From Candidatus Adlerbacteria bacterium (GTDB taxonomy: Bacteria > Patescibacteriota > Minisyncoccia > Phycocordibacterales > SBAW01), in the NCBI GenBank assembly GCA_027451965.1, contig DAIDHJ010000001.1, positions 356,799-420,798 on the forward strand: a stretch of DNA of 64,000 bases, given 5' to 3'. Of the stretch, positions 3,226 through 39,262 are shown one piece after another. Positions within the stretch are counted from its first letter, which is position 1. Each line of letters opens with the position of its first letter. A model generated the notes under the pieces. It was not told where the DNA came from, ran no database searches, and was given only the letters and a program-made list of their open reading frames with translations. A program made the translations under genes and the position numbers.

Positions 3226-5826
3226 ATGGAAGACATAATTCACATAAAAGGAGCAAAAACGCACAACCTCAAGAATGTTTCGTTGAGTATTCCACGCAAC
3301 AAGATGGTGGTATTTACCGGTTTATCCGGTTCAGGGAAATCTTCATTGGCATTCGATACTATTTTTGCCGAGGGACAACGCCGTTATGTCGAATCATTAT
3401 CTGCGTATGCCCGACAATTTTTACGCCAAATGCAAAAACCGGATGTGGAAGAGATTACCGGACTTTCTCCGGCTATCTCTATTGACCAGAAAAGTCGTTC
3501 AAACAACCCGCGCTCAACAGTGGCGACTGTTACTGAAATCTATGATTATCTCCGTATTTTATTTGCCCGTATCGGAAAACCACATTGTTTGATCTGTGGT
3601 AGAGAAATCAAGAAACTTTCGAATGAAGAGATCATTCAAAGTATCGTAGAAAGCATTACCAAAGCAGTCCCAAAAAAAACCCGAAAGGTACTGGATGTGG
3701 AAATGGTGGACGATACGGTAAAAATTTTTGCGCCACTGGTAGTCGGGAGAAAAGGGGAGTACTACCAACTGCTCTATGATCTTCTAGGAAAGGGATTTGA
3801 AAAAGCGAACGTTGATGGAAAACTGCTGAGTCTGCGGGAGCGTATTGTCCTTGAAAAAAACAAACCGCATGAAATTGACGTATTGGTTGATGAGATCCTT
3901 ATTTCAGAATTTTCGCGCAATCGTACTAGTGCTCTGGAACGCCTTTCTGAAGCGGTTGAACGATCGCTCCATGAGAGTGATGGACTGGTAAAAATCGAAG
4001 ACACACAAGGATCACGTATCATCTCAGCAAAATTCATGTGCCCATATGACGGATTCTCTTTCCCAGAGGTTGAACCACGCCTCTTCTCATTTAACTCTCC
4101 CTACGGCGCATGTGCGGAATGCAACGGATTAGGCACCAAGCACTTTTGGAGTGATGAACCGTGCCCAGCGTGCCACGGTGCTCGTCTGCGCCCGGAAGCT
4201 TTGAGTGTGCATATCGGGTCTCCATACAAGGATCATCCACACGGAAATAATATTGTTGATGTGACTCATTTTTCCATTGCGGATGCATTCCAATTCTTCA
4301 AATCACTCGAGTTATCAAAAAAAGAGCAAGAAATCTCCAAAACGGTCATCAAGGAAATCTGTGCTCGGTTGAAATTCATGCTGGATGTCGGTCTCGATTA
4401 TCTGACGCTTGATCGAAAAGCCAACACGCTCTCTGGTGGAGAAGCACAACGTATTCGCTTGGCTTCTCAGTTAGGATCTGGATTGGTTGGTGCACTATAT
4501 GTGCTTGATGAACCAACAATTGGATTACATCAACGCGATAATGACCGTCTTATAAAAACGTTGCTCAACCTGCGTGATCTTGGGAACACTATTGTCGTGG
4601 TAGAGCATGATGAGGATACGATCTACTCAAGTGATTTTCTTGTTGATATAGGACCGGCGGCAGGAGTGCATGGCGGTAAAATCATTGTCGCTGATTATCT
4701 GGACACGTTACTCACTGCAAAAAAAAATGAAAGCGGATCAGTGACTCTTGCATACTTGCGAGGAGAAAAAACAATTCCCGTGCCTGAAAAACGACGCAGT
4801 GCAGATAAGGGATTTATCAAAATTCGAGGAGGACAAGTGTTCAATATCAAAAATCTCTCTGTCGACATTCCTTTGGGAAGATTAGTGGCAGTAACCGGCG
4901 TATCCGGTTCAGGTAAATCGAGCTTTCTCTATGAAATTGTGTATGAGAACTTGAAAGCACGATTCGACAAGCGTTATCGAACCAACAAAATACACAACGC
5001 TGCTTCCGTGGAAGGTCTGGAACAACTTTCTCGAGCTATTCTCATTGATCAGTCGCCCATCGGCCGTACACCACGATCAAACCCGGCTACGTACACCGGT
5101 ACTTTTACCTTCATCAGAGATTTGTTTGCTGCCACTACTGAAGCTCGAGCGCGAGGATGGAAATCAAGCCGCTTCTCATTCAATGTACCACAAGCTCGCT
5201 CAGGCGGACGTTGTGAAGCCTGCGAAGGAAACGGGGTAATTGCCATTGAAATGCACTTTCTTCCAACGGTGTATGTCACCTGTGATGTATGCAATGGAAA
5301 GCGATTCATGAAAGAAACACTGGAAGTGAAATATAAAAAGAAGAGCATTTACGATGTGCTTACGATGACCGTAGAAGAAGCACTTGAGTTCTTTAACGAT
5401 ATTCCTGCTATCTATGACCGCCTTAAAACCCTTGATGAGGTTGGTTTAGGGTATCTTGAACTCGGACAAAGCGCGACAACCTTATCCGGTGGAGAAGCAC
5501 AGCGAGTAAAAATAGCTGCTGAGTTATATCGACCACATCTCCAGAAAACAATATATCTGCTTGATGAGCCGACGGTCGGTCTTCATTACGAAGATGTTGC
5601 GAAACTTATTGATATCCTTAATCGATTAGTGCTCGCCGGCAATACGGTGATGCTTATTGAGCATAATATGGATGTCATAAAGAATGCGGATTGGATTCTT
5701 GATTTCGGTCCGGAAGGAGGAATAGGGGGCGGCACATTGGTAGCTAAAGGCACGCCAGAAGATATAGCAGAGAACAAGCATTCGCACACCGGCGCATATC
5801 TCAAAAAAGCATTGCGCCGCTCATAG
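3226..5826 (+). CDS. uvrA: excinuclease ABC subunit A
   Basis: Tandem ABC ATPase modules ([17 protein letters not shown] x2, Zn-finger CxxC pairs). Homology begins at [16 protein letters not shown] (ATG 3226). An alternative upstream ATG at 3169 has a better SD (AAGGTGG). Confidence 0.92.
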
Positions 5827-8102: not shown

Positions 8103-8846
8103 TCAAGCAAACATTATTCTGTTCTTACCTTCATGTTTTGCTTTATACAAAGCTCCATCCGCCCGCTCCATTATGGATGCAATGTCTTCCCCGGGGTAGC
8201 GAGGTATTGTTACACCAATTGAAGCGGTTATTTTTATTTTCTGAGGATGCTCTCCTATTTCTATTGTGGATATTCCTTGTAAAACGCGTTCTGCTGCTTT
8301 GTGCGCTGATGCATAGGCTCTTTTATTTGAGTTCACGCGATTGGAAAAAAGACATGCAAATTCATCTCCTCCAACTCGCGCCTTCAAATCTCCTTTTCTG
8401 CAAATGCAGGCCAACAAGGTCTCCTTGATCATTTCTAGAACTTGGTTACCAGCAGGATGGCCAAGCGTATCGTTTACCTGTTTGAATCCATCTAAATCCA
8501 CTATGGCCACTCCGGAGTAAGGGTGTTTTAAGAGCTCGCGCTTAGCATGTATCTTGAAACCACGCAGATTATGGAGCTCAGTGAGCAGTGGGTCGGTGAA
8601 ATCCACTCGATCCATCGCTTCTGAGAAGAAATGATATACATCCTCCTTATGCTGTTTTACAGCAGCAAGAATTTTCTCGTTCATTTCTGAAGGAGAAAGT
8701 TGTTCTGCAAACCCTATGGCGATAAGAGGCAAGAGGTTGAGAGTGGGGAAGAGTGCGTGATATCTTTCAATAGTTTTTTCTACTGAAAGTTCTTGTGCCC
8801 GAATCTTGAGGATTTGCCCAGCTATATGATCTTTGTCTCGTTGCAT
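8103..8846 (-). CDS. GGDEF-domain diguanylate cyclase (no recognisable sensor domain)
   Basis: RVGGDEFACLF active-site motif and RxxD-like context; about 80 aa N-terminal helical region. Confidence 0.85.
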   Translation of the reverse strand: MQRDKDHIAGQILKIRAQELSVEKTIERYHALFPTLNLLPLIAIGFAEQLSPSEMNEKILAAVKQHKEDVYHFFSEAMDRVDFTDPLLTELHNLRGFKIHAKRELLKHPYSGVAIVDLDGFKQVNDTLGHPAGNQVLEMIKETLLACICRKGDLKARVGGDEFACLFSNRVNSNKRAYASAHKAAERVLQGISTIEIGEHPQKIKITASIGVTIPRYPGEDIASIMERADGALYKAKHEGKNRIMFA

Positions 8847-9225: not shown

Positions 9226-10038
9226 TTATTGTAGTGTGAAGTAAGAACAGGCATGCGATTCATATAGCTCGCTTGTTATGGTTGCATAGAAGATACTCGC
9301 GTAGTAAGCGTGTCCTTGTGTATTAGGGTGCACATCTCCCAGCGGTCCAATACCATTGTTGTAGTAGTTAGATGGATCATATGCACCTGCGGCGCAATGC
9401 AGATCAACCACTGGAAATCCCATCTGGTCGATCGTGTCATTAAGTGTGGCGTTGAGATTCGAAAGTGCAGTGCGCTGCTCCATGCTAGCCCACTCTTTCC
9501 ATTCAGGAAGATTGGCAAGATTCGGTAGATTTGCCACATAGATCGATGCACCCGGAAATCCGTTGTGCAAAGCCGAACCGATAGCTTGCATGTTTGCTGC
9601 AAATGTTGACTCAACTGTAGCGGGAGTGTTTATGCCCTTCGCCTGCACAGCAGGATCAAGGGTATTGGCGCAAACGCATGACAATTCATCATTCGTTCCG
9701 ATTAAGAGAGTGATTACTTGGGTTCCTGGTGGAATTTTAGATACTTCATCTTTGATAATTCCTTCTGAATATTCTCCGGGGATAGCCAGGTTGATGAGCT
9801 GTGCCTTCAAGTCTTGCGCAACGATAACCGGAAAAGCTTGTGTCTGGATGGAAGTCGCATACAACCCGTAGGGAATCGAATCTCCCAACGACACGTATTT
9901 CGCATTTGGTCGGATCGGCGTGGGGTTGGGAATCGGGGTAGGAAATTCTAAAGGAGTGGGTGGTGTCATAGCACCACCTCCACCACCGCAGGCGGCAAGC
10001 ACCACAAGCGGTAGAAATATCAGATATTTTTTGAACAC
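9226..10038 (-). CDS. SGNH/GDSL-family hydrolase lipoprotein
   Basis: Signal peptide with lipobox (LAAC). GDSI block I, GTNDE block, DxxH (DVHPNTQGH) block V. Confidence 0.7.
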   Translation of the reverse strand: MFKKYLIFLPLVVLAACGGGGGAMTPPTPLEFPTPIPNPTPIRPNAKYVSLGDSIPYGLYATSIQTQAFPVIVAQDLKAQLINLAIPGEYSEGIIKDEVSKIPPGTQVITLLIGTNDELSCVCANTLDPAVQAKGINTPATVESTFAANMQAIGSALHNGFPGASIYVANLPNLANLPEWKEWASMEQRTALSNLNATLNDTIDQMGFPVVDLHCAAGAYDPSNYYNNGIGPLGDVHPNTQGHAYYASIFYATITSELYESHACSYFTLQ

Positions 10039-10122: not shown

Positions 10123-10194
10123 GTGGACCCGGCGAGAATCGAACTCGCGCCTCTGCAATGCGAATGCAGCATTTTACCACTGAACTACGGGCCC
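10123..10194 (-). tRNA. tRNA-Ala (anticodon CGC)
   Basis: Reverse complement folds as a cloverleaf with G3:U70 and anticodon loop TTCGCAT. CCA is encoded. Confidence 0.8.
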
Positions 10195-10195
10195 G

Positions 10196-10266
10196 TCGGA
10201 GTGCCGAGAATCGAACTCGGGTTTTACGCACCCGAAGCGTACGTAATGCCACTATACCACACTCCG
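10196..10266 (-). tRNA. tRNA-Pro (anticodon CGG)
   Basis: Reverse complement: acceptor CGGAGTG/CACTCCG, anticodon loop TTCGGGT, T-arm GAGTTCGATTCTC. Confidence 0.7.
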
Positions 10267-10294
10267 TTTTTCAAACATCCGTACTAAAGACGGG

Positions 10295-10367
10295 TGCACC
10301 CTGTAGGACTCGAACCTACGACCCCACCCGTGTGAAGGGTGTGCTCTACCAACTGAGCTAAGGGTGC
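10295..10367 (-). tRNA. tRNA-Val (anticodon CAC)
   Basis: Reverse complement GCACCCTTAGCTCAGTTGGTAGAGC...TTCACAC...GGTTCGAGTCC. Confidence 0.75.
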
Positions 10368-10409
10368 AGCAATGCCATCATAATCAAAAATCACCAAAAA
10401 GGCACTGCA

Positions 10410-10856
10410 CTAATTATTACTACCGCGGAGTAATTCTTGCACTTCGATACGTTCTGCATGAAATGCTTGCTGGAGAATCGGGGTACAAGCTTGTGGCTCA
10501 GCATTTCCGCACATAAATACATCAAGAGCTGCATACCCGTATTCAGGCCACGTATGAATGGAAATATGACTTTCTGCCAATACTGCAACACCTGATACAC
10601 CCCCATTTGGTTCGAAGTGGTGGAGATGGATATGTAGCAAGGTTGCTCTAGCTTTGGTTACACATTCTCGAAGTGTCGCTTCAATATATGCAATATCATC
10701 AAGATGATCTGCGTCATACAGATCGATAATGAGATGTGTACCGGCATAACGAAGGCCATTTCGCTCTATGAAATGATCCTGGACTTCTTCGTAAGGCTGG
10801 GAGGCGCTAGCGACTGGTTTCATTTGCTCGTACTCTGATACGGTCATAGCTGGCAC
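10410..10856 (-). CDS. speH: S-adenosylmethionine decarboxylase proenzyme (class 1, pyruvoyl-dependent)
   Basis: LAESHISIHTWPE self-processing motif. About 130-150 aa, the size of the small bacterial/archaeal form. Confidence 0.8.
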   Translation of the reverse strand: MPAMTVSEYEQMKPVASASQPYEEVQDHFIERNGLRYAGTHLIIDLYDADHLDDIAYIEATLRECVTKARATLLHIHLHHFEPNGGVSGVAVLAESHISIHTWPEYGYAALDVFMCGNAEPQACTPILQQAFHAERIEVQELLRGSNN

Positions 10857-10915
10857 AATAAAAAATTATATCAAAAATTGCAATATGTGGATAATATGCT
10901 GTAAAGTACTAGAGC

Positions 10916-10988
10916 GGGCCCGTAGCTTAGTTGGTAGAGCGCCTCATTTGCAATGAGGAGGTCAGGAGTTCGAATCTCCTCGGGTCCA
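10916..10988 (+). tRNA. tRNA-Ala (anticodon UGC)
   Basis: GGGCCCGTAGCTTAGTTGGTAGAGC...TTTGCAA...GGTTCGAATCTCC, G3:U70. Confidence 0.85.
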
Positions 10989-11174
10989 CACATTCTTTAT
11001 TAGTGTATATCTATATTTGACACAGTGTTGTTTGCTCGATAGGGTAAAACGTATGCACTCTAGTGCAACATATTTCACTACAACCGTTACCACCTGCTGG
11101 ATGGGTATTTTTACCATTCTTACAGGAACTACGCGGAGATAGGGGAGATATGTAATAACCACAACATAGAAACC

Positions 11175-17749: not shown

Positions 17750-17822
17750 GGGCCCATAGCTCATCTGGTAGAGCGCATCCATGGCATGGATGAGGTGAGG
17801 GGTTCGAGCCCCCTTGGGTCCA
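17750..17822 (+). tRNA. tRNA-Ala (anticodon GGC)
   Basis: GGGCCCATAGCTCATCTGGTAGAGC...ATGGCAT...GGTTCGAGCCCC, G3:U70. Confidence 0.85.
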
Positions 17823-17959
17823 CCGATTCTGAATTTTGATCAGATTTAAATATTAAAGATATGTAACTCACTATCTTATCTGTAAAATAGTGGTATAGTA
17901 TCGCTAATTGTTCTTTCCTCCGTTGTTTTTATCTTTATAAATCAATAATATATAGTCGT

Positions 17960-18487
17960 ATGTCAAATCTCCACAAAGCAATTTTTATAGCGCTCGGTGT
18001 CTTTCTTTTTTGCAGTACTCCGTTTGTTTCTGTACATGCACAAACCGTATTTCCTTCATACGGATGTCCTATGAGTTATTGGAATTCATATAATTGCGGT
18101 AACAACTACTACAACAACGGGTATTACAACGGTAATAGCTATTACTATAATAATCCGTACCAGACGTACTACTATTACGATCTTTCATCACCGTATGGAT
18201 ATAGCAACTATCCGTATAACACGACACAGCCGTACTACGGAAACTATAACTACAACTACTACAATAATTACAACAATGGCTACCCGTATTCGTATTACGG
18301 CAATTACAACAACTACTACTCATCAAATATTTATGGAGGAGGATACTGGGGCTATTGCTACCAAACAGTAGCGCCAAACTACGGACCGTCATATAAGTAT
18401 CCGTGCTACTACCCGTACAACACCAACTCCTATTACGGCAACTACAATAACTACTACAACAACGGGTACTATTATCCTGGCTACTAA
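17960..18487 (+). CDS. secreted low-complexity protein with extreme Tyr/Asn/Gly content (YN-rich, 4 Cys)
   Basis: Signal peptide (ALGVFLFCSTPFVSVHA-QT) then about 145 aa dominated by Y, N, G, P and S. No domain recognised. Confidence 0.6.
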   Translation: MSNLHKAIFIALGVFLFCSTPFVSVHAQTVFPSYGCPMSYWNSYNCGNNYYNNGYYNGNSYYYNNPYQTYYYYDLSSPYGYSNYPYNTTQPYYGNYNYNYYNNYNNGYPYSYYGNYNNYYSSNIYGGGYWGYCYQTVAPNYGPSYKYPCYYPYNTNSYYGNYNNYYNNGYYYPGY

Positions 18488-18489
18488 CG

Positions 18490-18735
18490 TTACTGTAAGA
18501 CTCCTCGTTCAGTTAGATACGCTTTGACCTGATCTACATCAGAGTCAGGCAGTAAATGACCATCAATATCGAGTGTGGGGGATTTAGATTGTCCCGTTTT
18601 TTCTAGCACTTCTTTTTCATATGCCGGATTTTGGAAGATATTCCGTTCATCAAACGGAATGTTCTGCGTGCGTAAAAAATCTTTCACATCTTCCGCCCAT
18701 CCGCAGTTTGTTTTGGTATAGATAATGATATGCAT
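18490..18735 (-). CDS. glutaredoxin-like protein (monothiol, CGWA in place of CxxC)
   Basis: IYTKTNCGW...NIPFDERNI...SPTLDIDGHLL matches the Grx/NrdH-like thioredoxin fold pattern. Confidence 0.55.
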   Translation of the reverse strand: MHIIIYTKTNCGWAEDVKDFLRTQNIPFDERNIFQNPAYEKEVLEKTGQSKSPTLDIDGHLLPDSDVDQVKAYLTERGVLQ

Positions 18736-18788
18736 AGTTGGTCTCTAGTATAGCAAAAGCAGCCCATCAAATACCTTCAATGAGCTGC

Positions 18789-19022
18789 TTATTCCGGCCG
18801 TATGATAAGCCAGCGTTTATAGCTTTCTACGGAAGGAGGGTTACCAATCCATGTTGTAGGAACTGGTTTCCAGGTATGACCCTTGACTTCGTTTACCATG
18901 TCTCCTTCCTCTACGATATCGTTATCCTTATGTCGTACCTCTCTTCCTCTGATCGTGTTTGGAGGATCATCTTTATTCCAAGGAGGACCGTTAGGATGTT
19001 TATGTGTAGCTAAAGGACCCAT
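18789..19022 (-). CDS. hypothetical small protein (77 aa)
   Basis: AGAGGAG RBS 6 nt before ATG on the minus strand. No homology recognised. Confidence 0.4.
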   Translation of the reverse strand: MGPLATHKHPNGPPWNKDDPPNTIRGREVRHKDNDIVEEGDMVNEVKGHTWKPVPTTWIGNPPSVESYKRWLIIRPE

Positions 19023-19112
19023 GCGCACCTCCTCTGGAGGTTATACTCCTCATCCTTTTATTTCGCAATTTACGGCAGAAAGAGGTATGTATTTATCTGT
19101 TATACTTTTTAT

Positions 19113-19937
19113 ATGATCTTTGTAGCAGGATTAACTCTTGCTTTTTACCTCATGCAGCAGTTCGGCATGATGCTCGGGTTTGGTGCGGAAATGGTACTTC
19201 TTTTTACCTATCTTGCAGGCCGTCGCAAAGGAGTCATTAACGAAACAGAAGATGGCATTGCGCACGGCATCTACCACATTCTTGTTTTCTCCTTATGTTT
19301 TATCATTATTTCCGGTGTTGGTATTACCGGCATCCACTTCGCCTCTTTGCAGTTCAGTGTACTAGCATCCCCAGCGTTCGTCATTAAATGGATTCTCATT
19401 ATCATTGCCGCCGTCTTGGCGTTTCTGCTTCGCGGGTTTCGTATTTGGAATAGTGCGCTGGAAGGAATCTCAGGAGCGAATTGGGGAGCGCTCTTTCTGC
19501 TCCATATCTTTGCTCCCATTACGACCTACTTCGTACTGATCAAGCTCTATATTGAATTTGTCGCAGTATTTCTCATCCTGTGGTACCTCGTCATAGTTGT
19601 ACTACGCCTCAAGCCTGCGGTCATGCAAAAAGTCGCACCGGCTCGCCCGCAAACAACAACAGCAGAGTATATGCTTCCGCAACAATCGTTCTTTTTTCAA
19701 TTGCAATCATTTTTTACCTCACTTTCTTCTATTCATCTACCTTTTCTGAAGCAATCCGCTCCGCCTGCCGCTACCGTTAAAACAGAACCAGCTACACCGA
19801 AGATTCCTACACAACCTCAGCCAATCATTTTTTCTCCGGAGCGAACCACAGAGCTTCCGCCAATTCATGTGATGCCACAATCAGAAGAGGAATTACTGCA
19901 ACGGAACAGCAGAGAAGGTGATATAAAGGAAGTATGA
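19113..19937 (+). CDS. hypothetical polytopic membrane protein with Pro-rich C-terminal tail
   Basis: About 6 hydrophobic helices. ATGA overlap with the next gene. Confidence 0.5.
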   Translation: MIFVAGLTLAFYLMQQFGMMLGFGAEMVLLFTYLAGRRKGVINETEDGIAHGIYHILVFSLCFIIISGVGITGIHFASLQFSVLASPAFVIKWILIIIAAVLAFLLRGFRIWNSALEGISGANWGALFLLHIFAPITTYFVLIKLYIEFVAVFLILWYLVIVVLRLKPAVMQKVAPARPQTTTAEYMLPQQSFFFQLQSFFTSLSSIHLPFLKQSAPPAATVKTEPATPKIPTQPQPIIFSPERTTELPPIHVMPQSEEELLQRNSREGDIKEV

Positions 19938-20548
19938 AGTTCTTTCACGATATCGAACAGAAAAAAATTCTTATCCTGATCGGTCATCCAGACTCCGGCG
20001 ATACCCTTACCTCGCAACTCGCGCTTCTGTATGAGACTGCGGCAAAAGCTGCCGGTCATGAGGTGCACACATTCCATCTGGCAAAGCTGCAGTTCGACCC
20101 TATCCTTCATAAGGGATATAAAGTGATTCAAGCGCTGGAGCCAGATTTGCAAGAAATGGAGCGTCAACTTGCCTGGTGCGACCATTTTGTAGTGTTCTAT
20201 CCCACCTGGTGGTGCAGCATGCCCGCACTCCTCAAGGGGTTGTTTGACCGCATGTGGCTGCCCGGATTCTGCTTTAACTACTATAAGGAAGGATGGCGCC
20301 AGCATCTCCATCTCTGGAAGAAAAAAATGCGAGGAAAAACAGCCCGAGTCATTGCGCTTTCCGGATCCGCGCCATTTTTTATCTGGATGCTCTTCGGCGA
20401 TTACACCAATGAAATTACCCGAGGCATTTTGTGGTTCGCAGGCTTCAAAGTGCGAGTGACGCGATTCGGCCCCTCTGAAGTTGCACCCGAATGGAAGCGC
20501 AATGAGTGGCGCCGCTTTGTTACCCGCCTTGGCAAAATAGGGGAATAA
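19934..20548 (+). CDS. flavodoxin-like fold NAD(P)H dehydrogenase (quinone) family protein
   Basis: ILILIGHPDSGDTLTSQLA N-terminus typical of the Flavodoxin_2/NQO/KefF-MdaB family. Confidence 0.6.
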   Translation: MKFFHDIEQKKILILIGHPDSGDTLTSQLALLYETAAKAAGHEVHTFHLAKLQFDPILHKGYKVIQALEPDLQEMERQLAWCDHFVVFYPTWWCSMPALLKGLFDRMWLPGFCFNYYKEGWRQHLHLWKKKMRGKTARVIALSGSAPFFIWMLFGDYTNEITRGILWFAGFKVRVTRFGPSEVAPEWKRNEWRRFVTRLGKIGE

Positions 20549-22565: not shown

Positions 22566-25406
22566 ATGGAACAGTACGATCATAAAAAAATAGAAAAAAA
22601 ATGGCAGCGCTTCTGGCAAGAAAAGCACACATTTGAAGCAGGCGAGGATCAAAAGAAAGAAAAAAACTACATTCTCATCGAATTTCCATACCCCTCAGGA
22701 GACGGACTCCATGTGGGACATGTGCGCTCTTGGACTGCGCTTGATATTGTTGCGCGCAAACGCCGCGCAGAAGGAAAGAACGTGCTCTATCCCATTGGGT
22801 GGGATGCGTTCGGACTTCCGACTGAAAATTATGCGATCAAAACAGGGAAAGATCCTCGGATCGTTACCAAAGAAAATACGGATACCTTTCGCCGGCAGAT
22901 TCAATCTCTCGGTATTTCATTTGATTGGTCCAGAGAAATAAATACCTCTGATCCGGACTACTACCGATGGACGCAGTGGATTTTTTTGCAGCTCTACCGG
23001 CAAGGTCTTGCATATAAAGCGAAGACATATATTAACTGGTGCCCAAAAGATAAAATCGGATTAGCAAACGAAGAGGTGATAGACGGCGCATGCGAACGCT
23101 GCGGCACACCGGTTGAAAAGCGAGAGAAAGAACAGTGGATGATGGCGATTACGAAGTATGCGCAACGGCTCTATGATGATCTCGATACCGTAGACTATAT
23201 CCCGCAGGCAAAATTGCAGCAGCGAAACTGGATCGGTCCTTCTCAAGGCGCAGAGATACGATTTCCCATTAAGGACAGTGATCGTTCTATCGCTGTGTTT
23301 ACCACGAGACCCGATACCCTCTATGGCGCTACGTACGTGGTGCTTGCTCCGGAGTTGCTCTTAGCGGCCCAGCTTGCCGAGCAGGCTGAAAACCGGGATG
23401 AGCTGAAGGAATATATTGTGGCAACACAACAAGTCTCTGAAATGGAGCGCACCGCAGAAGGGAAAGAAAAAACGGGCATAGAGATGAAGGGAATACGCGC
23501 CATCAATCCTGTAACTAAAAAAGAAATCCCTATTTTTGTTGCCAACTATGTGCTTGGCGGGTATGGCACCGGAGCGGTTATGGGTGTTCCTGCGCATGAT
23601 CAGCGGGATTATCTCTTTGCAAAGCGATTTCATCTTCCGATACAAACGGTATTAGAACCATTAATCACAAAAAAAGAGGGGGAAGATGCATTACAATCCT
23701 CTCTTCCGCTCGTAGAGCGCCGATCTGTCGTGGCGGTCATTAAACACTGGAGCGAAGACAAATATTTGGGAGTCCGTTGGAAACGAACAAATTGGCAAGC
23801 GTTTGTGATTGGCGGCATTGAAGCAGGCGAGGATGCCGCAGCGGCCGGCAAGCGAGAAATCAGGGAAGAGACAGGGTATCGCAATGCAACGCCAGTGCGC
23901 TCGCTCGGCGGAACGGTGCATGCCCAGTTCTATCAAACACTCAAACAAGAGAACCGGTTTGCCCATTTTGAACCGATGCTCTTTCAGCTCGAGAATGCGG
24001 AGCGCGATCCGATAACACCCGAAGAGCAGGCACTCCATGATCTCGTCTGGCTTTCTCCAGAGGAAATGGATGCGTTCATCACCCATCCTGATATGCAGAT
24101 CATATGGGACCGCGTGAAAGGAAACGAGTGCTACACCGGCGAAGGTATACTCATCCATTCCGGCACATTTGATGGCTTGGAAAGCGAAGTAGCAAAAGAA
24201 AAAATCACTGCATCTGTAGACGGTGTGCCGCGGACGGTATTTCGCTTGCGTGATTGGATATTTTCTCGACAGCGCTACTGGGGAGAACCAATTCCGATGA
24301 TTCAGTGTCCATCATGCGGATGGGTGCCAGTGCCGGAAAGTGAGCTACCAGTTCTGTTGCCGGAAGTGGATCGCTATGAACCAACCGATAGTGGAGAATC
24401 GCCACTCGCGGCGATTACTTCATGGGTAGAAACCACGTGTCCCTCCTGTAAGGGTCCGGCAAAACGAGAAACAGATGTGATGCCTAATTGGGCAGGCTCT
24501 TCCTGGTACTATTTGCGCTACTGCGATCCGAAAAATACGAAACAGTTTGCTTCAGAAGATACACTGCGCTACTGGACGCCGGTTGATTGGTACAACGGCG
24601 GCATGGAGCACACGACACTCCACCTCCTTTATTCGCGTTTCTGGCACAAAGCGCTCTATGATCTAAAGCTCGTACCAACGAGCGAACCGTATATGAAGCG
24701 CACCTCCCACGGTCTTATTCTTGCCGCAGGAGGAGAGAAGATGTCCAAATCAAAAGGCAATGTCGTCAATCCGGATGACATTGTAGAGCGCTATGGTGCA
24801 GATGCGCTTCGTCTCTATGAAATGTTCCTGGGACCTTTTGATCAACCCGTCGCCTGGAATGAAGACAGTATTATCGGTGTCCGACGGTTTCTTGAGCGAG
24901 TGTGGAAGCTTGCGAAACAACCAACCGCACAAGAACCTGCGCCGGAAACAGAACAGTTGCTTGCGCATACTATAGCGAAAATCACTTCAGATATTGAATC
25001 ACTCAAATGCAATACTGCGGTGAGTCAGTTGATGATCATGCTCAAAACGTTTGAGCAATACGCTCCCACAGAAGAACAATTGCAGATATTCCTCCAATTG
25101 CTCGCGCCATTTGCGCCGCATATTGCCGAAGAGGTGTGGCAAGGCAAGGGGAATACTTCGCTTCTTGAAGAGCTTCCTTGGCCTACCTACAACCCTGAGA
25201 TACTCGTATCCAAGGAAGTAACCATAGCAGTCCAAATCAATGGGAAAGTGCGATCAACGATATCTGCCCCTCTGGATGCTCCAGAACAAGAGGTCATTGA
25301 AAGAGCGCGCAGTGACAACAAGGTACAAACATGGCTTGCTCGAGGAACCGAGACTCGAGTTATGTATGTGCCCGGGCGGGTTGTCAACTTTATACTTGAC
25401 CTATAA
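22566..25406 (+). CDS. leuS: leucine--tRNA ligase with an inserted NUDIX hydrolase domain and apparently shortened CP1 region
   Basis: HIGH (HVGHVRS), TTRPDT, AHDQRD, KMSKS all present. Residues about 385-517 form a NUDIX fold with a perfect Nudix box, GGIEAGEDAAAAGKREIREETGY. Confidence 0.93.
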   Translation: MEQYDHKKIEKKWQRFWQEKHTFEAGEDQKKEKNYILIEFPYPSGDGLHVGHVRSWTALDIVARKRRAEGKNVLYPIGWDAFGLPTENYAIKTGKDPRIVTKENTDTFRRQIQSLGISFDWSREINTSDPDYYRWTQWIFLQLYRQGLAYKAKTYINWCPKDKIGLANEEVIDGACERCGTPVEKREKEQWMMAITKYAQRLYDDLDTVDYIPQAKLQQRNWIGPSQGAEIRFPIKDSDRSIAVFTTRPDTLYGATYVVLAPELLLAAQLAEQAENRDELKEYIVATQQVSEMERTAEGKEKTGIEMKGIRAINPVTKKEIPIFVANYVLGGYGTGAVMGVPAHDQRDYLFAKRFHLPIQTVLEPLITKKEGEDALQSSLPLVERRSVVAVIKHWSEDKYLGVRWKRTNWQAFVIGGIEAGEDAAAAGKREIREETGYRNATPVRSLGGTVHAQFYQTLKQENRFAHFEPMLFQLENAERDPITPEEQALHDLVWLSPEEMDAFITHPDMQIIWDRVKGNECYTGEGILIHSGTFDGLESEVAKEKITASVDGVPRTVFRLRDWIFSRQRYWGEPIPMIQCPSCGWVPVPESELPVLLPEVDRYEPTDSGESPLAAITSWVETTCPSCKGPAKRETDVMPNWAGSSWYYLRYCDPKNTKQFASEDTLRYWTPVDWYNGGMEHTTLHLLYSRFWHKALYDLKLVPTSEPYMKRTSHGLILAAGGEKMSKSKGNVVNPDDIVERYGADALRLYEMFLGPFDQPVAWNEDSIIGVRRFLERVWKLAKQPTAQEPAPETEQLLAHTIAKITSDIESLKCNTAVSQLMIMLKTFEQYAPTEEQLQIFLQLLAPFAPHIAEEVWQGKGNTSLLEELPWPTYNPEILVSKEVTIAVQINGKVRSTISAPLDAPEQEVIERARSDNKVQTWLARGTETRVMYVPGRVVNFILDL

Positions 25407-37038: not shown

Positions 37039-37995
37039 ATGCCTCTCTTTACTGCAAAACCATCAGGAAAAACCATTGCTATCGTTGATGTTGAAAATGG
37101 TACTGTTGGCACTGGACTCGTGCATCTTTCTACCCATTCTTCTCCTCAATTTTTTGCAGAAAAAAGAATTCCATTTCCCTATAAAGAACAAGTGCATGGC
37201 GCCGCACTACTTGCTCACGCAGAACAATCGGTACAAGAGGGATTGTTGCATATAAGCGAGGTGGCAGCTCGTATACGCTTGCATCCATCACTCAATATCA
37301 ATGCAGACATAGAACGCATCCTTTTCTTTCTTGGAGCCCCGTGGAGCGAATTTATGATTTCCGCTCCACAAGAATACCGCACGGTCGCTCCGCGAATATT
37401 AACCACAAAACTTAAACGCCTCGGTGCACAGCAGTTTGATGGAGTATCTGTATCGTTCCATACCAGTAGCGTGGCGACTGCCAATACGATGGCGTTGTTT
37501 TATCCTAACGAAACGAGTGCGCTATGCATTGTAAACGGAGAGCTATCAGAGCTTATTGTGCACCAAGGTGAGCGTATCCTTGGAAGAGCAACTTTTCCGA
37601 CAGGAACACGCACAATAGATCGTACTCTGCAGGTGCATGCAGGAATGCGTCCAAATGAAGTGACTTCTGCACTCCAGCTTTCTCCAGCATACCTTTCAGA
37701 AACGCTCGCCGTTGTACAAGACCATTTTCTGGAACAACTCTATGTCGCTGCACGATCTCTTGTGGAAGAGGGAAATGTAAAACATTTTTTCATTATTGCT
37801 CAAGAACCATATGGCGAATGGTTGGCTAGAGCGATAGCAGACTCTCCGGCAATTGCATCACTTTGTAGCGGCGGGGGGACTGTGCGTGTATTGCGCGCAT
37901 CGCAGTTTACCCCTTATTTCCAAGCAAAGAACGAACGTTCAGACGTAATGTTGCTACTGGAAGCATTGTTTGCGTGCAGTATGCATCGTGTATAA
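37039..37995 (+). CDS. hypothetical protein; weak resemblance to actin-like (ASKHA) ATPase phosphate loop
   Basis: IAIVDVENGTVGTGLV glycine-rich N-terminus. Otherwise unrecognised. Confidence 0.35.
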   Translation: MPLFTAKPSGKTIAIVDVENGTVGTGLVHLSTHSSPQFFAEKRIPFPYKEQVHGAALLAHAEQSVQEGLLHISEVAARIRLHPSLNINADIERILFFLGAPWSEFMISAPQEYRTVAPRILTTKLKRLGAQQFDGVSVSFHTSSVATANTMALFYPNETSALCIVNGELSELIVHQGERILGRATFPTGTRTIDRTLQVHAGMRPNEVTSALQLSPAYLSETLAVVQDHFLEQLYVAARSLVEEGNVKHFFIIAQEPYGEWLARAIADSPAIASLCSGGGTVRVLRASQFTPYFQAKNERSDVMLLLEALFACSMHRV

Positions 37996-38002
37996 TTTTC
38001 TT

Positions 38003-39262
38003 ATGCAAGACATGATTCCTCCACGGGAGCGTTCCATTCGCAATATTCCTATTAGCACTAATACAAACCATCCGATACCGCCTCGCCAAACACCACCTTC
38101 CTCAAGACGCCCTTCTCGAACTCCTTTCTTCCGGAACATTTTATGGATCCTTGGCATTCTGTTGGTATGTGCCCTTGCAGGGGTAGTATTTTCTGCTTTT
38201 TTTGAAAATACAACGGTAACGCTGTACCCGCATACGCAAACAGTCAATACAACCGGAGCCATTACTGCCCAGCCTGACGCAGGAAACGGCACACTTGCGT
38301 ATCAAACCCTTTCTGTTACTCGATCTGCTACTACTAGCGCTTCTGCATCCGGTACGCAGCATGTAGTGAAATCAGCGACCGGTATAATTACTATCTACAA
38401 CGCCTATAGCACTAAACCGCAGAAACTTATTACTAACACTCGTTTTGCAGCGCCCAGTGGAGACATTTACCGCATTCATGCGCCGGTAACTGTGCCTGGC
38501 GCCACAAGGACTAGTACAGGTCTGCAACCTGGTACGGTTTCTGCGACCATATATGCCGATGGTCCTGGCAGCGCATATAATCTTGCAAGTACTACATCGT
38601 TTACAATCCCTGGGCTGAAAAATACACCAGAGTACACGACCGTATATGCTCAATCACAAGGTTCAATCTCCGGTGGTTTTATTGGTAATCAACCAACAGT
38701 GGCACCTGCTGACCTGACCACGGCTGAGGCGAACCTGAAGCAATCATTGGATAGCGGCGTATCGACAGCGGTGAACAGTAGTATTCCACCAGGATTCAGT
38801 CTTATTCCCGGCACATTGCAAGTCTCCTATACCGATATTGCGCAGACCCAAAATCCTGATACGTCGATCACTTTTGCGCAGAGTGCGACCGGTATAGCGG
38901 CGATTGTTCGGGACACGGACTTAGCTGCCGCAGTTGCCAAGCAGACTATTCCTACCTACAACAATGAACCAGTTACCTTCGCACATCCGGAAACGCTTTC
39001 TATTTCTTTGGCGGTAAGCCCTGGAAAAACACTTGGCCCGCTTTCTCTGCTTGTAGGAAACCCAGTCACTATCGTATGGCAGATTGATCAGAATGCGGTA
39101 GCCCAGGCGTTACTAGGTAAGCCGAAATCATCCTTTGAAACTATCATTCAATCATTTGCCCCCGCGGTGGAACAGGCGAAAGCGCAAGTACGACCGTTTT
39201 GGGAATCGCATTTTCCCACCAATCCCCAGAAACTGACCGTCACCGTCATGTCTCCACAGTGA
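38003..39262 (+). CDS. hypothetical membrane-anchored Thr/Ser-rich extracytoplasmic protein
   Basis: Pro/Arg-rich cytoplasmic N-terminus, one TM helix, long T/S/A-rich domain. Confidence 0.45.
   Translation: MQDMIPPRERSIRNIPISTNTNHPIPPRQTPPSSRRPSRTPFFRNILWILGILLVCALAGVVFSAFFENTTVTLYPHTQTVNTTGAITAQPDAGNGTLAYQTLSVTRSATTSASASGTQHVVKSATGIITIYNAYSTKPQKLITNTRFAAPSGDIYRIHAPVTVPGATRTSTGLQPGTVSATIYADGPGSAYNLASTTSFTIPGLKNTPEYTTVYAQSQGSISGGFIGNQPTVAPADLTTAEANLKQSLDSGVSTAVNSSIPPGFSLIPGTLQVSYTDIAQTQNPDTSITFAQSATGIAAIVRDTDLAAAVAKQTIPTYNNEPVTFAHPETLSISLAVSPGKTLGPLSLLVGNPVTIVWQIDQNAVAQALLGKPKSSFETIIQSFAPAVEQAKAQVRPFWESHFPTNPQKLTVTVMSPQ

Follow-up and report, generated by a model that had tools for sequence, protein, structure and literature searches.

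A tyrosine- and asparagine-rich protein of Candidatus Adlerbacteria and its divergent place in a small, unannotated family of putatively exported, disordered proteins with predicted cysteine staples

Several described systems bear comparison with the subject of this report, a tyrosine-rich gene from a bacterium of the Patescibacteriota. Mfp-3s, the ‘slow’ variant of mussel foot protein Mfp-3, is a low-charge, self-coacervating adhesive protein with 27 mol% Tyr plus Dopa, 18 mol% Asx and 29 mol% Gly, polar yet hydrophobic in character (PMC5132118). Prion-like domains, such as Sup35 N and the bacterial candidates, are uncharged, disordered sequences that combine Asn/Gln with Tyr and Gly, and those of bacteria are reportedly enriched in proteins of the cell periphery and the cell wall (PMC4606120). 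The curli amyloids of the CsgA type are Sec-exported, contain Asn/Gln and self-assemble into a matrix, while a very high Tyr content within an extracellular resistant layer characterizes Bacillus CotC/CotU/CotG, Eimeria GAM56/82, trematode eggshell proteins and extensins. The gene considered here lies at positions 17960 to 18487 of a 64,000-nt stretch of contig DAIDHJ010000001.1 from Candidatus Adlerbacteria bacterium, and this whole stretch is referred to as the window. As judged from its sequence, the product belongs to a small family, so far without annotation, of putatively exported, disordered proteins with predicted Cys staples. It is a divergent member of that family, and among the systems named above it appears most like the low-charge Tyr/Asn-rich adhesive or prion-like proteins without being homologous to them.

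An earlier note on this DNA had described a secreted protein dominated by Tyr, Asn and Gly, with four spaced Cys behind a signal peptide, and translation, composition and a by-eye reading of the N-terminus bear this description out. The signal peptide can be divided by inspection into an n-region MSNLHK, an h-region AIFIALGVFLFC and a c-region STPFVSVHA, which places the cleavage site at VHA↓Q, with V at position -3 and A at -1, ahead of Q28 (QTV). The mature part of 148 residues consists of ~35% Tyr, 21% Asn, 11% Gly, 8% Pro and 8% Ser, carries one Asp and one Lys as its only charged residues (net charge ~0) and contains the two Tyr/Asn-rich runs NYYNNGYYNGNSYYYNN and YGNYNYNYYNNYNNGY quoted in the earlier note. 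Its four Cys are C36, C46, C133 and C149; an additional C18 is situated within the signal peptide. In the 52 other long open reading frames (ORFs) of the window, Tyr makes up 3.3% on average (maximum 6.6%) and Asn 3.1%, and relative to these the binomial probability of at least 52 Tyr in 147 residues is ~5e-39. Shannon entropy amounts to 2.9 bits, versus a mean of 4.0 in the other ORFs. The proposed comparison of composition, made with the other ORFs of the window, confirms an extreme outlier.

An exhaustive phmmer search of 1.84e9 cluster representatives returned one convincing relative, P0001 (ENA ERZ27241256), a protein of 157 aa with 47% identity to the window protein over its full length (E 7.7e-12). 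A match of 2168 aa (P0002, E 4.8e-4) was judged to reflect composition and not relationship. Profiles built from the growing alignment retrieved ~30 proteins of 98–213 aa, and a degenerate DNA pattern for the N-terminal motif yielded 16 loci in JGI metagenomes, of which 13 contain real family genes and three (L098, L100 and L104) are spurious matches. The family set comprises 39 sequences, namely alignment A3 and eight further sequences from loci L099–L112. Three relatives were still matched under correction for composition, a check that the earlier note had also proposed: composition-adjusted BLAST with the window protein gave 5e-15 for P0001, 2.7e-8 for the N-terminus of P0026 and 2.5e-10 for the C-terminal motif of P0005. 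An identical protein is encoded on six contigs from several samples (GCA_021834085.1, GCA_021825025.1, two ENA assemblies and one Logan assembly) that show 99.9% DNA identity to the window and no difference within the gene; these copies represent one species and consequently provide no information on divergence.

A single-sequence, word-indexed protein search returned no match for the window protein, even though the protein is present in the collection and scores 1.5e-100 against itself in phmmer; the null result therefore reflects failed candidate selection, which low-complexity words appear to swamp. None of the 308 pattern matches from a search of metagenomes with alignment A1 was confirmed by tblastn, probably due to low-complexity masking. 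Since a word-indexed search can miss such proteins completely, similar families of extreme composition may be under-counted. The window protein has no sequence match in Pfam, NCBIfam or the PDB, which agrees with the earlier view that it is no enzyme, and the family profile has no PDB match either. Across the family, Pfam gave nothing significant except for one TIG domain; matches to Myticin-prepro, Keratin_B2 and PKD in Pfam and to TPR and Menin in the PDB were dismissed as insignificant. All members with source names are labelled “hypothetical,” and within the literature collection searched no paper was found on the motif or on tyrosine-rich proteins in the Candidate Phyla Radiation, nor anything relevant on the assembly accessions. 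By these comparisons the family appears new to annotation, lying outside Pfam and the PDB, with NCBIfam compared for the window protein only.

Members begin with a predicted signal peptide, whose cleavage site has the form A/V-x-A and precedes Q or Y. A few residues downstream of the cleavage site lies the family signature (V/I)TTPYWCGSY[WY]SSxPC, the third position of which is T or A. Its canonical C-x8-C form is found in 35 of the 39 sequences, all of which keep the Y, W, C, P and C without exception. The sequence from L105 is cut at the 5' end of its contig, and a variant with a longer loop occurs in the window protein, in P0026 (Kaiserbacteria) and in P0029. In the window protein this variant reads FPSYGCPMSYWNSYNC (C-x9-C) and retains Y34, C36, Y40, W41, S43 and C46. 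The following spacer of 35–90 residues contains on average 28% Tyr and ~19% Asn plus Gln, with 0–5 charged residues per protein; most members use Gln as much as Asn, and the window protein is the richest of all in Asn and among the richest in Tyr.

Three subtypes of a second module can be distinguished. Subtype 1, GYWGYCY[QE]TVAPxYGxSY[KR]YPC, is present in the window protein and eight others; the window form, GGYWGYCYQTVAPNYGPSYKYPC, aligns with those of P0001, P0003, P0004, P0005, P0007, P0011, P0015 and P0017. Subtype 2 consists of an immunoglobulin (Ig)-like domain of ~80 residues (…TLSWSSxNATSAYIS…MTVYGPGGxNxC…) or, in P0009, of a TIG domain (2e-9), and a weak PKD match in Pfam was seen in a family member. 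Subtype 3 reads CPxGYYxxxGxCYP. The number of Cys is nearly always four, arranged in two local pairs inside the conserved modules. The sequences close with a Tyr-rich tail. Among the 36 complete members, 35 have an aromatic C-terminal residue, which is Y in 20 and W in 15 and frequently follows G (...G[YW]-COOH), even though W accounts for only 2.4% of family residues; this terminal Y/W may represent a conserved C-terminal signal. All five features used to recognize the family were found in the window protein, the N-terminal motif in its degenerate form. The positions of these elements are listed in Table 1.

Table 1. Features of the tyrosine-rich gene and its immediate surroundings in the window.
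Feature	Position (nt)	Strand	Details and basis
Tyr-rich gene	17960..18487	+	175 aa, ATG start, TAA stop
Predicted Sec signal peptide (signal peptidase I, SPase I), aa 1-27, MSNLHKAIFIALGVFLFCSTPFVSVHA↓Q	17960..18040	+	n/h/c regions, -3/-1 rule, by inspection
N-terminal Cys-loop motif, aa 31-46, FPSYGCPMSYWNSYNC	18050..18097	+	degenerate form of family signature
Uncharged Tyr/Asn/Gly low-complexity core, aa 47-125	18098..18334	+	composition; predicted local distance difference test (pLDDT) <50
Second Cys-pair module, aa 126-152, GGGYWGYCYQTVAPNYGPSYKYPCYYP	18335..18415	+	predicted β-hairpin, C133/C149 on opposite strands
Tyr/Asn-rich tail ending ...YYYPGY, with TAA stop	18416..18487	+	sequence
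tRNA-Ala(GGC) after atpC, boundary of variable slot	17750..17824	+	ARAGORN, Rfam
AT-rich upstream region	17825..17959	+	~34% GC, 135 nt; GC profile
Candidate promoter elements TGGTATAGT and TATAGT	17891-17899 and 17951-17956	+	read from sequence
Convergent glutaredoxin-like gene	18490..18735	-	Pfam PF00462, 5.6e-15; 2-nt gap to Tyr-rich gene

The conserved family with its two Cys-pair motifs, which had not been seen at the outset, upholds the claim of a discrete and real gene, and the gene is very probably a true exported member of a protein family. A spurious, untranslated ORF derived from low-complexity DNA would have been suggested by the lack of a Shine-Dalgarno sequence and by overlapping ORFs in alternative frames. 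This reading retains hardly any probability and is effectively refuted by family conservation, as conserved motifs, paired Cys and signal peptides recur in 39 homologues. The family loci span 43–60% GC, and the conservation of specific motifs across this range rules out a chance ORF and settles the worry about an artefact. Moreover, Tandem Repeats Finder detected only three weak, short arrays (scores 31–39), and the bias consequently resides at the protein level and not in a DNA microsatellite or tandem repeat, contrary to the repeat artefact that the earlier note had considered. Tyr codons also deviate from the surroundings, with TAC used for 62% of Tyr in the gene versus 40% in the window flanks (p=0.003). 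Six other loci possess enough flanking genes for the comparison, and three of them showed a significant shift of this kind, as would be expected if selection acts on the translation of a message with 30% Tyr.

The start context is in agreement with a real gene as well, since it resembles that of the other window genes without a Shine-Dalgarno sequence. No Shine-Dalgarno sequence was found before the Tyr-rich gene, and it is missing from nearly all window genes. A TATAnT-like -10 box is located 9–16 nt before the start in 6 of 46 window genes, versus a background of 3%, which suggests leaderless or very short-leader transcripts for the first genes of operons, the Tyr-rich gene included. In the latter, the TATAGT box ends 4 nt 5' of the ATG. 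A consensus promoter scan called no two-hexamer promoter upstream of the gene, and an Rfam scan found no RNA element 5' of it. Gene starts considered together with TATAnT-like boxes include 17960, 19113, 28089, 30265 and 56384.

P0026 is the one member from a named source: it corresponds to HY417_00500, a hypothetical protein of Candidatus Kaiserbacteria (GCA_016204705.1). It is located ~2 kb upstream of a ychF–DUF5671–tRNA-synthetase block, as is the window gene, with 66% identity between the YchF proteins, and this placement can be read as a loose positional conservation. Both proteins share the PYGCP-type variant of the N-terminal loop. The window AtpD is 87% and 84% identical to those of two metagenome-assembled genomes (MAGs) of Candidatus Paceibacterota and 77–79% identical to those of Kaiserbacteria MAGs. 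The contigs of other members carry sortases, type-IV-pilin-like genes and DUF5671-type genes, a content compatible with Patescibacteria. Judged by these contigs, the family has so far been seen in a Patescibacteria-like (Paceibacteria/Kaiserbacteria-like) setting.

AlphaFold2 was run twice, with the window protein alone and with an alignment of nine sequences. Mean pLDDT was 42–46, and in both runs the values remained below 50 except at one hairpin. This β-hairpin of the second module, GYWGYCYQTVAPNYGPSYKYPC, with strands 128–135 and 145–152, is the only folded part of the models; its strands reach pLDDT 76–79 in the run with the alignment, and C133 and C149 are placed on opposite strands. FoldIndex is -0.19, and an estimated, PAPA-like prion-propensity score of 0.14–0.36 exceeds a cut-off of 0.05. 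Together with low charge and predicted disorder, this gives the protein a prion-like composition. The composition cosine to the Mfp-3s table is 0.87 (PMC5132118), whereas that to the Sup35 N domain is 0.66, or 0.80 with N and Q merged. The resemblance to adhesive or prion-like proteins asserted in the earlier note is thus borne out in composition.

Nevertheless, each of the described systems departs from the window protein. Like the latter, Mfp-3s is small, secreted, rich in Tyr, Asn and Gly and low in charge, but it is an animal protein without homology to the family, depends on Dopa made by tyrosinase, is richer in Gly, includes some Lys/Arg and has none of the Cys motifs. With prion-like domains the window protein shares an uncharged, disordered sequence of Asn/Gln, Tyr and Gly; however, it has twice the Tyr of Sup35 N, is predicted to be exported and not cytoplasmic, and is bracketed by conserved predicted disulfide modules. 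Sec export and Asn/Gln content recall curli, although self-assembly, established for CsgA, would have to be assumed here; Tyr stands in the place of the Ser/Gly/Gln/Asn ladders and the imperfect β-solenoid repeats are absent. No Curlin repeats (Pfam) were found in the family and no csgB/E/F/G-like partners in the neighbourhoods. Most of the cross-linked coat proteins are charged, being rich in Lys/Asp/His, and are served by dedicated oxidases, whereas the window protein is almost charge-free and no oxidase was found in the neighbourhoods examined. True homologues with the same architecture are P0001, P0026 and ~35 others, from which the window protein differs by its degenerate N-terminal motif and among which the C-terminal module varies.

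The explanation favoured here, held tentatively and with somewhat less than even confidence, is that of an exported, self-associating adhesive or envelope/matrix protein. From sequence, the conserved Cys pairs in local modules, the uncharged, Tyr-rich and predicted-disordered chain and the lack of an enzymatic domain may be regarded as shown or nearly shown. Export via the Sec signal peptide with its predicted SPase I site comes close to this level, being in line with A/V-x-A sites across the family and with the Ig-like extracellular modules of some members (TIG in P0009). Outside the cell, the four Cys would form two local disulfides: C36–C46 would close an aromatic loop of 9 residues near the N-terminus left by cleavage, while C133–C149 would staple the β-hairpin. 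According to composition and predicted disorder, the remaining ~105 residues would constitute an uncharged, disordered Tyr/Asn chain of poor solubility that self-associates by Tyr stacking and Asn hydrogen-bond ladders, resulting in an amyloid-like, gel or coacervate material. A chain of this kind would yield a sticky structural material that coats the cell or surrounds it, be it an envelope coat, a matrix or an adhesive, and the conserved N-terminal loop might act as a specific docking or nucleating element.

Several points weigh against this explanation. The window protein contains no cell-wall anchor (LPXTG, lipobox or transmembrane segment) that would account for its retention at the surface. 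No neighbour is conserved across the family, and thus nothing in the genome ties the protein to envelope biogenesis. The signal peptide and the disulfides are by-eye readings, the PAPA-like score is an estimate, and the analogies to Mfp-3s and Sup35 are ones of composition and not of homology. The apparent taxonomic restriction is drawn from a single named member, from the gene content of contigs and from the window's own relatives. The role in a surface, sheath or matrix and the dityrosine cross-linking put forward in the earlier note found no direct support, with no tyrosinase, laccase or peroxidase near the members.

The prominence of the N-terminal motif allows a different view, in which the aromatic disulfide loop or loops and the Tyr chain bind polysaccharide via CH-π stacking and the protein acts as a lectin-like adhesin for episymbiont attachment. 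Its targets would be the cell's own wall, the wall of a host cell, chitin or cellulose, and no self-assembling material would be formed. Indeed, conservation in the family is highest in a small loop that displays Y, W, Y and W/Y, Ig-like modules of a kind typical for surface adhesins are present in some members, and small disulfide-rich carbohydrate-binding modules (CBMs) use aromatic platforms. On the other hand, no CBM, hevein or LysM-type Pfam match was obtained in 31 members, no PDB relative exists and the analysis points to no ligand. This view is considered unlikely, and it overlaps with the favoured explanation of a self-associating adhesive or matrix protein without excluding it.

Clustering of all neighbouring genes revealed no gene conserved across family loci. 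A VOC/glyoxalase-like gene is situated upstream of P0001 and P0005, which are orthologous loci, and a Cyt-b5 protein together with a ~140-aa membrane protein downstream of P0003 and P0004, an orthologous pair. In L087, the Cyt-b5 protein (4010–4744) begins with a hydrophobic, membrane-anchor-like segment. ‘Cu-oxidase’ genes are located close upstream of three members (L095, 4237–5460; L109, 911–2134; L106, 2381–3619) and are mutually homologous at 54–90% identity, the L109 gene being 90% identical to that of L095. According to NCBIfam, the L095 and L106 proteins are the copper nitrite reductase NirK (TIGR02376, 313 and 330 bits versus a cut-off of 296), and the idea of a laccase or tyrosine oxidase as neighbour was rejected. 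The NirK proteins of L095, L109 and L106 are described as membrane-anchored.

These neighbourhoods bear on whether the protein could serve as the substrate of an oxidatively cross-linked coat, in which an extracellular oxidase would generate dityrosine or DOPA-quinone cross-links and hence an insoluble layer, as modelled by spore-coat, oocyst-wall, eggshell and extensin-type proteins. A Tyr content of 35% in an exported protein is a hallmark of such substrates, and the P0004 locus offers an adjacent Cyt-b5-domain protein with an N-terminal hydrophobic segment, with Cyt-b5 also nearby on the P0003 contig. However, Cyt-b5 occurs near this one orthologous pair only, and no tyrosinase, laccase or peroxidase was detected in the scanned ORFs of the 64-kb window, including those around the gene, or in the neighbourhoods of its relatives. 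The Cu-oxidase neighbours form one homologous cluster, and with the two tested being NirK, the support for laccase-based cross-linking of tyrosine was dropped. Such a coat is accordingly rated as decidedly improbable.

Many members have flavin- or redox-related genes only a few genes away. Flavodoxin_2 or flavin mononucleotide (FMN) reductase genes were found near the window gene (19934–20548), in L095 and in L103 (1344–1931, FMN reductase at -1), a riboflavin kinase at +1 in L105 (812–1159) and an FNR-like reductase at +1 in L093 (8430–9152). PNPOx-like genes are present in L088, which also contains DoxD, and in L095 and L109, where they adjoin NirK. The Cyt-b5 genes count among these recurring redox genes as well. 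Taken with the glutaredoxin-like gene of the window and the NirK gene of L106, this distribution is the argument for a redox or radical role, in which the Tyr chain would serve as a sacrificial sink or a conduit of oxidizing equivalents at the cell surface, for example for NO2 radical or peroxynitrite from NirK-derived NO, or in quinone chemistry. Yet these genes were grouped post hoc, and the loci lack phylogenetic independence. None of the genes is conserved throughout, and most of the enzymes, being devoid of a signal peptide, would stay in the cytoplasm. We know of no precedent in bacteria, and a redox role is regarded as very unlikely.

Small size and four Cys might also point to an antimicrobial peptide or to the precursor of a ribosomally synthesized and post-translationally modified peptide (RiPP), that is, to a Gly/Tyr-rich toxin or to aromatic residues cross-linked by a maturase. 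Aromatic-x-Asn motifs superficially resemble cyclophane RiPP precursors, and three members gave weak Myticin-prepro matches in Pfam (best E 0.0055), which are far short of significance. Gly/Tyr-rich antimicrobial peptides are cationic, whereas the net charge here is ~0; a Sec signal peptide takes the place of a leader peptide, and 12 neighbourhoods contain no radical-SAM, P450, LanM-type or ABC-export maturation genes. This possibility is given very little weight, below that of a redox role.

A broader proposal, considered doubtful, is that of a lineage-specific extracellular Tyr-based material in Patescibacteria of the Paceibacteria/Kaiserbacteria type, either as a Dopa-enzyme-free glue or as a redox-active Tyr layer. 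The disulfide-capped, charge-free Tyr/Asn(Gln) protein would then be polymer-like and, as a glue for hosts or surfaces, may be a counterpart to the wet adhesion of the Mfp-3s type; the redox version may be linked to the NirK, Cyt-b5 and flavin reductase genes recurring beside members. Uncharacterised small secreted families are common in Patescibacteria, and to our knowledge it is largely unknown how these ultra-small bacteria build their envelope and attach to hosts, most of their exported proteins being unannotated. In this setting, a compositional oddity has become a defined family of 39 sequences with a sharp signature and two predicted disulfide modules, and the combination of a charge-free composition of ~30% Tyr with the motif makes it a concrete candidate in the search for adhesive or matrix components. 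Should the material properties be borne out, the sequence would be of interest as an enzyme-independent, Tyr-rich bioadhesive or as a self-assembling peptide scaffold.

The genomic setting matches the earlier description of a gene located 3' of tRNA-Ala(GGC) behind the atp operon, with an AT-rich upstream region, and converging on a glutaredoxin-like gene. The glutaredoxin-like protein has a single-Cys CGWA in place of CxxC and is best read as an atypical monothiol protein of the Grx fold; all of its NCBIfam matches (YruB, NrdH and Uxx-star) are below the cut-off. No glutaredoxin gene was found beside other family members, and it is consequently not a conserved partner. Two loci, L006 and L007, are syntenic with the window (atp operon … membrane protein–Flavodoxin_2–ychF–DUF5671) and differ in the slot 3' of atpC. 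In L007 (7720–11020) this slot contains tRNA-Ala(GGC) followed by a 631-aa ATPase-like ORF and a membrane protein, in L006 (6880–9130) it contains a 621-aa secreted protein and no tRNA, and in the window (17825–19112) the Tyr-rich gene, the glutaredoxin-like gene and a 77-aa ORF at 34–44% GC, versus 48–55% in the flanks. A synteny search via AtpD found no Tyr-rich ORF at the equivalent position in any of 80 related loci. Judged by this gene content, the slot between atpC (with tRNA-Ala) and the membrane-protein/Flavodoxin_2 pair looks like a hotspot of integration or replacement.

Elsewhere in the window, a 430-aa ORF (37970–39262, +) shows a sub-threshold match (23 bits versus a cut-off of 27), too weak for interpretation, to the β-barrel domain of GlxA, a radical copper oxidase whose cofactor is of the Tyr-Cys type. 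Four tRNA genes are located 5' of the atp operon at 10123–10989 (minus strand: Ala-CGC, Pro-CGG and Val-CAC; plus strand: Ala-TGC), close to genes for a GGDEF diguanylate cyclase (8103–8846) and a GDSL lipase-like lipoprotein (9226–10038). A class-I aminoacyl-tRNA synthetase of 946 aa (22566–25406, +) contains an internal NUDIX match (Pfam, identical gene on L001), which appears to be an unusual insertion or fusion.

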